A DNA stretch of 6,252 nt. Origin: a virus. Lineage: Duplodnaviria; Heunggongvirae; Uroviricota; Caudoviricetes. Positions 1-5,343 of this stretch are shown here, one piece after another (positions within the stretch are counted from its first letter, which is position 1; each line of letters opens with the position of its first letter). The stretch lies in the IMG/VR virus record IMGVR_UViG_2778261453_000008. The stretch is one strand, 5' to 3'. Position numbers and translations under genes: made by a program. The notes under the pieces were generated by a model. That model had not been told where the DNA came from. It ran no database searches and saw only the letters and a program-made list of their open reading frames with translations.

Positions 1-330
1 GTGCCTGTCGTAGCGGCGTATTTCGCCGTCTGGTAACGACCAGATAAGGTCCGGATCAACCACTGCAGGTTTCTTCACCTTTGCCCTTGAGAGTTTTTTG
101 CGGGCATTTTGCCAGTCCTTACGAGCCTGTTCAGACGGGAATAACCCGTAACCAGAGTTGTATACATCGCCACTGGCAACCAGCTCTCTGGCAAGAACGC
201 TCATCAGATATCTTGTCGCACCTGTCTTGGCTTCCAGTTGCCGTAACGTCTCGCGCCCACTCCGGCGTACTAGCTCAACAACCTGCCCTTTAATTTTTTC
301 TCGCTCTTCTTGTGTAAATACTTTTGCCAT
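1..330 (-). CDS. Hypothetical prophage protein, 5' end complete, 3' end beyond the window (first 110 codons)
   Basis: ATG at 330..328 (minus) preceded by GGAGG with a 5-nt spacer (plus 336..340). The frame is open over all 110 codons to position 1, so it is absent from the ORF track only because no stop lies in the window. Begins MAKVFTQEEREKIKGQVVELVRRSG... It lies 15 nt after the stop of the upstream minus-strand gene, so same operon. Function not recognised. Confidence 0.5.
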   Translation of the reverse strand, partial: MAKVFTQEEREKIKGQVVELVRRSGRETLRQLEAKTGATRYLMSVLARELVASGDVYNSGYGLFPSEQARKDWQNARKKLSRAKVKKPAVVDPDLIWSLPDGEIRRYDRH

Positions 331-345
331 AAGCGCCTCCGGCTA

Positions 346-1116
346 TCACTTTTCCGACACAATACGACTGGAGGAATCGACAATCTGTCGAACAATATCC
401 CGGTGCTTGTTCAGCTCCCGCAACGCGGCGCAGACTCGCTCCCACTTCTGAACATCACTTTTCGCCCTGCGCAGCGCCAGGTTTGCCCTGCGCAGGGACG
501 GAAAAATCAGCTCATCTGCTTGCGTTTCGGTAAACGATGGCAACGACTGCACAATGTCCGCCACAGTTTCTGTTTTAATTTCTTCCTGTGTTGCGGCTTC
601 CCGGACTGGTAACGCAGCACCTGCTGGCTGAGGAAAGGCCTTACCATCACTTTCCGTTACCAGCGCGGCTTTCGACTCTGCTGGTAAATTATCGCCCGGC
701 ATGCAGTAACGAAATTTACCGTTCTGATTAACGCGTGCCAGCCGCCCCGTTGCGGTTACCACCGCCAGCGTGGAAGCAACCTTGCGAGTACTGACACCGA
801 ACTTACCCGCCAGTTCCTCACACGTTTTAGCCCCATCCTGACCGATAAACTCAATCATCATGTCTGCGGTAACTTTTTGTTCGACCTCCCCGGTCAGCAT
901 ATCCTGTGCTTCAGATTTTACTGGCCGCTCTTCGGTTACCCGGGATTCACCTTCGCCAGCCAGAAACCAGGTGTGACCAGTTTTATCAACGACGCCATTT
1001 CTTTTGAGTTACCACAGCTCGTTGACAGCCTCTTCACGACTGATTCCAAGGCGAGCTGCCACCACATGTGAAGAGGCTTTTTTCAGTGCTTTCAGTGCGT
1101 CAGATACGGTTTCCAT
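346..1116 (-). pseudogene. DUF1627/YdaW-position prophage protein interrupted by an in-frame TAA (ochre) at 1011..1009; the intact C-terminal 184-codon ORF is 346..900
   Basis: ATG at 1116..1114 with GGAGG 4-5 nt upstream (plus 1123..1127) and 22 nt after the DnaC-like stop. It reads 35 codons ([35 protein letters not shown]), then TAA at 1011..1009, then continues in the same frame for 36 codons into the track ORF 346..900. The ATG at 900 has no good SD (AGGA only 1 nt upstream), so independent initiation is unlikely. Assignment to the YdaW position is by synteny, not sequence recall. Confidence 0.55.
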
Positions 1117-1137
1117 TAAAATTTCCTCCGGACAAAA

Positions 1138-1884
1138 TTACTTCACAACCCTCATATTGCTGACATTTGGACGCCAGCTATCCCAGTTAAACGTCACCCA
1201 TCGACCACCGTTCATGGTCATGCGGTCCATAATCCTCTCACCAAGAAGCGTACTCATTGCGGCATGATTCAGGTTTGTTAACATCCCGACACTGCACAGT
1301 GATGCTGTCCGGCGATCAATTATCTGGTGCAATACCACCTGCTCGTTTTTCGTCTCCCGCTGAACGCCTATTTCATCCAGGACCAGCAAATCAACCCCGC
1401 AAAGCTCCTGTAAAAATTTTTCCCCGGATTTGCCGTTGTCGTAGCTGTCATGCAACACGCTCATGACGTCAGACACGGTGACGATAATCACGCTGCGCCC
1501 CTTCACCATCAGCCGGTTGCCCATCGCCGCTGCAAGGTGATTTTTCCCGGTGCCGGTTTTACCGCTGAACACAAAATTCGTGCACCCGGTCATCAGTTCG
1601 TCAGCTATGGATTTGGCCTGGCTCAGCGCGTATTTTTGCCCGTCGTTCTGCACCTGATAATTTGCAAACGAGCATTTGCTGTGCAGAGGCTGGATGCCCG
1701 AACGATTCAGGATTTTTTCCACCCGCAACTGGCGATTCTGGCGGTTAATCTCCTCGCTGCGTTTTCGTCCTTCAGCAAGTTGCCATTCCCGCCACTCCTC
1801 CACCGTCCGGTACGGTGGAACCGACCCCTGTGGTGCAAGTCTGCGAATACGTTCAAGAACCCCAACTGCCGCAATGTTTTTCAT
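1138..1884 (-). CDS. DnaC-like replicative helicase loader (AAA+ ATPase; lambda P functional analogue, Rac YdaV position)
   Basis: 248-aa ORF with a DnaC-type Walker A (FSGKTGTGKNHLAAA) and Walker B (DLLVLDEIG). ATG at 1884..1882 lies 6 nt after the O-like stop (1891..1893), suggesting translational coupling. Confidence 0.9.
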   Translation of the reverse strand: MKNIAAVGVLERIRRLAPQGSVPPYRTVEEWREWQLAEGRKRSEEINRQNRQLRVEKILNRSGIQPLHSKCSFANYQVQNDGQKYALSQAKSIADELMTGCTNFVFSGKTGTGKNHLAAAMGNRLMVKGRSVIIVTVSDVMSVLHDSYDNGKSGEKFLQELCGVDLLVLDEIGVQRETKNEQVVLHQIIDRRTASLCSVGMLTNLNHAAMSTLLGERIMDRMTMNGGRWVTFNWDSWRPNVSNMRVVK

Positions 1885-1890
1885 GACACG

Positions 1891-2853
1891 TCACCCCCTG
1901 AATCCCGGCGGTATTTCAGTGTCCGGTTCAGAAATGTGATTCACGCAACGCTGCGCGGGCGAACGCCCCAGGCGGATAACCAGTTCATCCCATTTTTCCC
2001 GGAGTTTTGCCGGACTCATGATGTTTTTTACCCAGAACGAATCCCGCTGGAGACGCCCAAACATTTCACAAATTTGTCTGTGAGTTCTGCCATCCAGCAT
2101 CCGCATTGTGCGAACGTCATTGGCCCATGCAGTCCAGTTGGGTTCTTTCGGTCTAGTGATCTCGCCATCATCGCTGGCCGCCTGCTCGTAAAGACTCACG
2201 ATTCGTCCCCAGATCCACTGTGCGCACACCAAATCTTCCTGACTTCCCCACTGGCGTTTTTTCGCACTGAACACAACCGCGTCAGGGTGTCGGGTTAAAA
2301 AATCCTGTTCAGCCGTCTGCGGGTCCGGTTGCGAAGCGTCCGGACAAGAAGATCTTTTATCTGACGGATCAGGTTTTAATACTGACGGATCGGGGTCAAT
2401 CATCGCCCCCCTAATCGGCAGTTTTTTATCAACAGTTGATCCATCAAAATTTGACGGGTCAACCGTTGAGGGGTCAATATTTGACGGGTCAACTGTTAAC
2501 GGGTCATTTTTTGCCGGGCTAATTTTTCTTTTCGGTTTATATGACTCACGCGCCGCCGCAGCAGCTGCTTCGAGTTTTTCCACATTAAGCCGATAGATAT
2601 TGCTTACATTACGCCCACCGACCTTACGCTCTTCCTTCGTCAGCCAGCCCTCTTTCGCCAGTTCTGCAATAGCCGATTTCACTGTGGATTCACTTCTTGC
2701 ACCGATCTGACGCCGGATAGTTTCAATGGCAGGCCATGACACGCCCTCGTCATTGCTGTAGTCTGCAAGACGGGCCATAACCGCCACCCTGGATAAGATC
2801 ATGCCGGTGAAGGCGCACCCTTCCCAGACAAGACCATGAAGCTTGCTGCTCAT
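1891..2853 (-). CDS. Phage replication initiator, lambda O-like (Rac YdaU position), with ori iterons inside the coding sequence
   Basis: Long minus-strand ORF. The N-terminal part resembles a winged-helix DNA-binding domain (...LADYSNDEGVSWPAIETIRRQIG...KSAIAELAKEGWL...). The central linker is a periodic peptide (DPSNIDPSTVDPSNFDGSTVD) encoded by the iteron array. The track starts at GTG 2868; I prefer ATG 2853..2851, which has a GGGGG SD 4 nt upstream, while the GTG has none. Confidence 0.85.
   Translation of the reverse strand: MSSKLHGLVWEGCAFTGMILSRVAVMARLADYSNDEGVSWPAIETIRRQIGARSESTVKSAIAELAKEGWLTKEERKVGGRNVSNIYRLNVEKLEAAAAAARESYKPKRKISPAKNDPLTVDPSNIDPSTVDPSNFDGSTVDKKLPIRGAMIDPDPSVLKPDPSDKRSSCPDASQPDPQTAEQDFLTRHPDAVVFSAKKRQWGSQEDLVCAQWIWGRIVSLYEQAASDDGEITRPKEPNWTAWANDVRTMRMLDGRTHRQICEMFGRLQRDSFWVKNIMSPAKLREKWDELVIRLGRSPAQRCVNHISEPDTEIPPGFRG
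2361..2520. repeat. Iteron array (putative prophage origin of replication) with adjacent AT-rich stretch
   Basis: Six tandem 15-bp units start at 2436, 2451, 2466, 2481, 2496 and 2511 (ttgatccatcaaa / ttgacgggtcaac / ttgaggggtcaat / ttgacgggtcaac / ttaacgggtcatt / ttgccgggct), each with internal dyad symmetry TTGAC..GTCAA. Two related copies, ctgacggatc, lie at 2361..2370 and 2382..2391. An AT-rich stretch follows at about 2505..2550. Confidence 0.65.
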
Positions 2854-2875
2854 AAAACCCCCGAACACCGTGCTT

Positions 2876-3566: not shown

Positions 3567-3666
3567 AGCTACTCCTTAGTAAACACAGCAAAGGATACCT
3601 ACAGGTAAACAAAAGTCAATACCCTTGGGTTGTTTACCTTGCGGTAATCGCATCTATTATTTACCT
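3567..3666. promoter_or_regulatory. Divergent promoter/operator region between the ydaS-like and repressor genes
   Basis: Two palindromic sites of form (A/T)TACC-N4-GGTAA: O1 at 3595..3608 (ATACCtacaGGTAA) and O2 at 3634..3647 (TTACCttgcGGTAA), plus a half-site TTACC at 3661..3665 abutting the repressor ATG. Candidate minus-strand promoter for ydaS: -35 TTGACT (plus 3614..3619 reverse-complemented), 16-nt spacer, -10 TATCCT (plus 3592..3597 reverse-complemented), overlapping O1. Confidence 0.55.
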
Positions 3667-4086: not shown

Positions 4087-4120
4087 CTCACCAAACAACC
4101 AGTCACCAGTCAAGATACAT

Positions 4121-4168
4121 CAAAAAAAAATTACCCGTGGGTATTTACTTTTTGAATACCCACGGGTA
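4121..4168 (-). terminator. Rho-independent terminator hairpin, canonical on the minus strand (possibly bidirectional)
   Basis: Perfect 14-bp inverted repeat, tacccgtgggtatt (4132..4145) and aatacccacgggta (4155..4168), with a 9-nt loop. Plus-strand A9 at 4122..4130 gives a U9 tract right after the stem on the minus strand. On the plus strand the stem is followed only by tccttcctttc, so it is weaker for the repressor transcript. Confidence 0.6.
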
Positions 4169-4354
4169 TCCTTCCTTTCATACCAACCCACCCCGTCCCA
4201 CAGAACGCAGGGCAATACCTAGAGTTACCCGGCAGTGGTCAGGGGTTAAGTAGCCAGCCCGAGGCGTATGAACATGACGGCGGGAACACTTTATATAACA
4301 GCGCAGCAGGTTTTTAGTTCCGCTACCCCGGCGTTAAGGGGAAATGAGGTCAAC

Positions 4355-4893: not shown

Positions 4894-5343
4894 TTTATTC
4901 ACGGGTGAGATAGAGTGCGTGCGCCGGACACGGGTGAGCATCCGGCACTGACAGTTTACTGAAAGGATATTTCCCTGAAAAGTCAGACCATAACGCGAAA
5001 GCGTACGGCGAGGTAGCTGGTTCATAGATAGCCTGTCGTTAAATTTTGACCGTGCGCTTCCGGTTGTGGCAATCCGCGAAATGGCGCGGCGGTAAGTATG
5101 GCGGGGTTATTCCTTCCCCGTTGAGGACACCGGGTTGTCAGGTTGACCATACGCTTAAGTGACAACCACGCTGCAACGCCCTCTGTTATCAATTTTCTGG
5201 TGACGTTTGGCGGTATCAGTTCTACTCCGTGACTGCTCTGCCGCCCTTTTTAAAGTGAATTTTGTGATGCGGTGAATGCGGCTAAGCGCACGCGGAACAG
5301 TTAAAACCAAAAACAGTGTTATGGGTGGGTTCTCTGTATCCGG

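Follow-up and report, generated by a model that had tools for sequence, protein, structure and literature searches.

A gene at the DUF1627/YdaW position in a 6,252-nt stretch of DNA (hereafter the window) is interrupted by an in-frame ochre stop codon. This raises the question of whether the locus holds one gene broken by a nonsense mutation, a separate gene starting at an internal ATG, a sequencing or assembly error, or a case of recoding.

The window carries the region for immunity and replication of a lambdoid, Rac-like prophage, a type known from E. coli. The genes follow the order YdfE, KilR, a DUF1391 gene, a RacR-like repressor, a YdaS-like gene, YdaT, an HTH_36 initiator, a DnaC/IstB-like ATPase, the split DUF1627 gene and a DUF977 gene. 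The location of DUF1627 between the ATPase and DUF977 genes is common to the window and to complete genomes. The upstream neighbour, the DnaC/IstB-like ATPase at the YdaV position (1138..1884, minus strand), is intact with 248 aa (Pfam IstB_IS21, 7.3e-19), and exactly this protein was found on at least 1000 public contigs. The downstream neighbour, the DUF977 gene (2..330, minus strand; Pfam DUF977, 7e-19), is cut by the contig end. It has its own GGAGG at 340..336 and an ATG at 330, with a Shine-Dalgarno (SD) duplex of -9.5 kcal/mol. The remaining genes of the window are all intact.

The split reading frame and its starts

Re-reading the minus strand bore out all the coordinates that the preliminary description had given for the split gene. 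Translation starts at ATG 1116..1114 and runs through 35 sense codons (1012..1116), whose DNA is identical to the 5' end of intact genes, before it meets the premature ochre stop TAA at codon 36 (1009..1011). Beyond the stop, codons 37-256 (346..1008) stay open as 220 more sense codons in frame, up to the TGA at 348..346, and are collinear with 256-aa homologues. The first ATG, GTG or TTG past the TAA is ATG 900, which corresponds to codon 73 (Met73) and opens the 184-aa ORF (346..900, minus strand) found in the ORF list and reported by gene callers.

The two starts differ as the preliminary description had claimed. The good SD attributed to ATG 1116 is present as a GGAGG at 1125..1129 (minus strand), 8 nt 5' of the start, and its duplex with the anti-SD reaches -9.5 kcal/mol, a value attained by only 1.7% of the 20-mers in the window. 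ATG 900 has no proper SD; an AGGA stands one base from the start codon (AGGA-N1-ATG), and its duplex of -4.1 kcal/mol is matched by 28% of the 20-mers. An internal start calls for both a functional ribosome binding site and a conserved start codon, a combination not found at ATG 900.

Homologues and predicted architecture of the intact protein

From 1116 to 346, all 771 nt can be aligned with no gap to annotated DUF1627 genes of 256 aa, at 98-99% nucleotide identity. This collinearity shows that the two ORFs have not come to lie side by side by chance. We compared two intact genes from complete E. coli genomes base by base (WP_134894859.1 and WP_000451003.1; 771 nt, 256 aa), and found GAA at codon 36 in both, where the window has TAA. 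The frame is disrupted by one base, a coding-strand G>T at position 1011 (C>A in plus-strand terms), and this is the only difference of its kind in the gap-free alignment. The preliminary description had foreseen four possible sense codons at this site, and GAA (Glu) was among them.

The intact genes WP_134894859.1, WP_000451003.1 and WP_000450998.1 (PHROG 630, PF07789) agree with the window gene in position, 771-nt length, start and SD. Intact E. coli prophage DUF1627 genes have a 256-aa product with Glu36, whereas the window has the stop and also P148S. Besides the stop, the window allele has five further differences from its nearest complete-genome relative, including P148S, which occurs in none of the four compared alleles. 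The repaired 256-aa protein of the window allele had no match in a 15-billion-protein collection, and thus no intact twin allele is documented.

The 8-mer GTGGTAAC, which is made by the G>T change (1015-1008, minus strand), recurs at 762-755, 253 nt downstream in the same gene and on the same strand. This second copy is most likely due to chance (about 1-2% for an 8-mer in 771 nt), and it could in principle have served as a template for the change.

The family is common in E. coli. A search with 901 nt around the gene matched 2,414 complete E. coli records, 1,582 of them at a query coverage of at least 80%, and the best 40 of the 2,414 matches were all annotated as 'DUF1627 domain-containing protein'. 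Many E. coli genomes carry multiple copies of the gene, in up to 9 places per genome.

Conservation of codon 36 extends well beyond these alleles. In a search of 5.8 billion proteins, Glu36 was invariant among the closest cluster representatives (120/120), 94 of which are exactly 256 aa long. A distant alignment was built from 37 full-length family members, 36 of them relatives at 20-65% identity, and here position 36 is E in 29 sequences, D in 4, K in 2, Q in 1 and N in 1. All 37 start at the equivalent of ATG 1116 with the motif METV..DALKA.GKA....A.RL, and even at 20% identity, relatives retain the N-terminal domain from residue 1 onwards. Met73 is present in 114 of the 120 close relatives, but in only one of the 37 sequences of the distant alignment (P0003 itself). 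The preliminary description had left room for homologues that begin at the equivalent of ATG 900; close and distant relatives alike begin at the position of ATG 1116.

We also considered the 184-aa ORF as an independent gene and rejected this, since relatives at every distance start at the position of ATG 1116. Its low standing in the preliminary description is further supported by the poor SD and by the lack of any promoter-like site in 250-1300. The 184-aa ORF is a by-product of the upstream stop and no independent gene.

The ydaW gene (b1361) of the Rac prophage in E. coli K-12 belongs to the same family and occupies the same place after ydaV, with 55% identity over residues 1-154, including the stretch NELWELK that holds Glu36. 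K-12 YdaW has no match to the C-terminal part of the family past residue 154, whereas the window keeps all of the DNA and translation is stopped at codon 36. The C-terminal part of K-12 ydaW was presumably removed by a deletion in Rac.

The 184-aa part of the window gene matches Pfam DUF1627 PF07789 (5.4e-98, 325.6 bits; cut-off 28.1) and phrog_630 (1.6e-92). The window gene thus belongs to the family by profile, and the full architecture is not present as one ORF; it is a pseudogene copy of a DUF1627/YdaW family member. An AlphaFold2 model based on the 37-sequence alignment had a mean pLDDT of 80, with values above 95 in the folded parts and in residues 1-50. The model places a first winged helix at residues 1-52 (helices 4-11, 16-23 and 27-39; strands 43-46 and 49-52), followed by a low-confidence linker (55-83), a second winged helix (84-138), a disordered stretch and a long C-terminal helix (208-255). 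Codon 36 lies within helix 27-39, the third of the first winged helix. The 35-aa peptide comprises the first two helices and the larger part of the third; it lacks the end of that third helix and the wing, which fits its earlier characterization as half of a small helix-turn-helix. According to the model, it cannot fold into a winged-helix domain.

A Foldseek comparison with the PDB returned generic single or tandem winged-helix matches (SelB, ScpB, ESCRT-II, DDRGK1, Z-alpha, MarR/ArsR), all with E values of 1e-3 or worse, so no function can be assigned from them. PHROG 630 and Pfam PF07789 are both labelled 'unknown function', and in the sparse literature on DUF1627 the only use that we found was as a synteny marker. 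Judging by the model, the intact protein may have a nucleic-acid-binding role.

DUF1627 and DUF977 are joined in a single product in two ENA proteins with 98% identity to the query (P0002, 403 aa; P0004, 372 aa). These are probably stop-loss or frameshift fusions of the two neighbouring genes.

Occurrence and origin of the stop codon

The stop is very rare. A 61-nt probe around it hit 1,541 places in complete E. coli genomes, none of them an exact match. A 30-nt probe requiring the T gave 0 matches in 5,426 complete E. coli genomes and 0 in 50,697 phage records, and the control probe with G matched 1,168 places in 1,014 complete E. coli genomes. A 23-mer with the TAA found no match in JGI metagenome contigs or in GTDB representative genomes. 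The exact look-up of the window's 184-aa product returned a single contig, NOCO01000078.1 (6,252 bp, draft assembly GCA_002549675.1), to which the window corresponds in full.

The exact 35-aa product was found in 33 index blocks. Among the 10 places listed, 8 are contig ends at codons 35-36 (...TGG, ...TGGG or ...TGGGA), and the TAA is present, besides the window, only in one contig (L011). We rejected the idea of many carriers of the 35-aa product, as the places listed are mostly contig ends; exact look-ups of short N-terminal fragments are contaminated by contig-end truncations. Public assemblies often break at codons 28-42 of this gene (L005-L010, L012, L013), and the resulting 'partial' proteins include 35-aa ones identical to that of the window. 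A probable cause of these breaks is branching of the k-mer graph between prophage copies that reside in the same genome.

The second carrier, L011, is the ENA metagenome contig ERZ27269940 k141_181971, which has the same TAA (501-503) followed by an intact 184-aa ORF. Within the gene, 14 other differences separate its allele from that of the window (the closest lies 14 nt downstream of the stop), and its DUF977 gene is divergent. Compared with the commonest allele (CP023844.1), L011 has two differences in 1,227 nt, at gene positions 106 and 285 (the second at contig position 680), each a G>T within a G-run. Shared descent of the two stops needs a recombination end point in the 13 nt between gene positions 106 and 120, and is no more likely than an independent recurrence or an artefact in L011. 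The TAA of L011 could be a recurrence, a short conversion tract or a damage artefact.

Disruption of the gene by other lesions is commonplace. The M73-start 184-aa product of the commonest allele was called on 220 public contigs. In 13 loci (L017-L029, from the 184-aa products of two alleles), at least 10 different events have disrupted the 216 nt upstream. This sample was selected for an intact 184-aa ORF and shows frequent disruption, not preferential 5' damage. The events are IS3-family insertions in L024 and L026 (CP027355.1, strain 2013C-4991), single-base indels in L017-L020, L027 and L029, a 16-nt deletion in L022, and a deletion or recombination junction near gene position 176 in L021, L023, L025 and L028. 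Errors in long-read assemblies probably account for some of these indels; in L029, the DUF977 and QueH genes are also split. Like the window, such disrupted genes (e.g. in CP027355.1) have a 5' break before Met73 that leaves a small N-terminal ORF and a 184-aa ORF starting at Met73. They differ from it in the kind of lesion, being broken by an IS, a 1-nt indel or a deletion of 16 nt or more, whereas the window carries a base substitution.

Taken together, we consider it very probable that the window gene is a rare nonsense pseudogene allele (E36*) that arose by G>T at the GAA codon 36. This was also the first choice of the preliminary description, and it is supported by the GAA to TAA difference, by the invariance of Glu36 in close relatives and by the absence of the T allele from complete genomes in which the G allele abounds. 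One G>T transversion would have turned the conserved Glu36 codon into an ochre stop. Translation from the strong start at 1116 would then end after 35 residues, inside the third helix, and the remaining 220 codons would stay untranslated or be at most weakly translated from Met73. The downstream codons contain no second lesion, and because none has accumulated yet, the gene would be a recent loss-of-function pseudogene; the same intact codons fit an error or continued selection equally well. The comparisons directly show the lesion, GAA (Glu36) as the ancestral codon, the rarity of the stop and the collinearity with intact genes. We infer that the organism truly carries this base at 1011, that the product lacks function and that the stop may have a polar effect on the downstream DUF977 gene. 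Against a unique private mutation stands the same TAA in L011 on a different allele, since such a recurrence is unexpected.

The main rival is a sequencing or assembly error, in which the organism has G at 1011 and an undamaged gene, and the stop is a consensus error in a short, repeat-bounded contig. The window is indeed a 6.2-kb contig of a draft assembly, the multiplicity of gene copies per genome and the frequent breaks inside the gene in public assemblies make such errors conceivable, and both the absence of the T allele from complete genomes and the undamaged downstream codons fit an intact gene. Furthermore, the two private changes of L011, both G>T in G-runs, resemble oxidative-damage or base-calling artefacts. 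In the window allele, however, the other private changes are C>T transitions, which gives no G>T error signature, and, barring a systematic error, the presence of the same base in two independent assemblies speaks for a real variant. In consensus sequences from short reads, the rate of wrong substitutions is about 1e-6 to 1e-5 per base, much lower than the frequency at which real pseudogenes occur in E. coli prophages. We regard an error as unlikely, and less likely than a nonsense pseudogene.

It is most unlikely that the locus works as a functional split gene, with reinitiation or de novo initiation at ATG 900 yielding a 184-aa protein whose function is kept or altered. The 184-aa ORF is intact and contains the entire Pfam DUF1627 region, with the predicted second winged helix and C-terminal helix. 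The exact ORF starting at Met73 also remains intact behind the varied 5' lesions described above, and the C-terminal part is joined to other N-termini in P0166, P0168, P0170 and P0182. These counts are, however, ascertainment-biased, as the look-up was made by exact product, and the lesions in L029 and L027 resemble long-read indel errors. ATG 900 lies 108 nt past the stop, a distance much greater than those over which reinitiation works in bacteria. The start has a weak, mis-spaced SD, and Met73 falls in the low-confidence linker and is unconserved in distant relatives.

Programmed readthrough or recoding of the stop, which would still yield the 256-aa protein, is effectively excluded. The frame is continuous across the stop and the next base is C (UAAC), which is not the strongest termination context. 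But a programmed signal should be conserved, and the stop occurs in none of the 1,168 homologous places and in only one other contig, in agreement with the low rank that the preliminary description gave to recoding. UAA is read by both release factors and is not known to have a natural recoding system in E. coli. We found no tRNA genes in the window, and thus no suppressor tRNA, and no Rfam element at the stop site.

Another reading, which we hold to be very unlikely, is that E36* belongs to a large set of independent lesions by which the first winged helix is selectively lost while the 184-aa remainder (second winged helix and C-terminal helix) stays intact in resident prophages. If true, either the full-length protein would be selected against, or a short form starting at Met73 would be functional. 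In that case, the same G>T on two alleles would suggest either selection or that the TGGGAA run is a mutational hot spot.

As a nonsense pseudogene, the window gene is an ordinary, very rare loss-of-function allele of little biological weight. It would be one more decaying gene of a resident prophage, in a family without assigned function that is already truncated in the Rac prophage of E. coli K-12. In annotations, the 35-aa ORF and the 184-aa ORF are best combined into a single entry marked as a pseudogene (E36*), rather than listed as a pair of hypothetical proteins.

The surrounding prophage region

Several other elements were observed in the window. A full-length DicF sRNA lies at 5195-5246 on the plus strand (Rfam RF00039, 72.4 bits against a gathering score of 48, E 4.9e-15), in an otherwise gene-free stretch between a 128-aa ORF and the KilR gene. 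Inside the gene of the HTH_36 replication initiator (1891-2868, minus strand), we found five iteron-like repeats TCAACnGTTGAnGGG with 15-nt spacing at 2429-2518. The repeats are partly palindromic (arms 2431-2463 and 2465-2497) and encode a DPSxxDPS peptide repeat. By analogy with lambda O, they probably form a putative prophage replication origin inside the initiator gene.

In addition, two inverted repeats were detected. One, with 17-nt arms that are 82% complementary (3596-3646), is located in the divergent intergenic region between the RacR-like and YdaS-like genes, and the other, with 27-nt arms (4119-4181), lies just past the end of the RacR-like gene. These are candidate operator and terminator sites.
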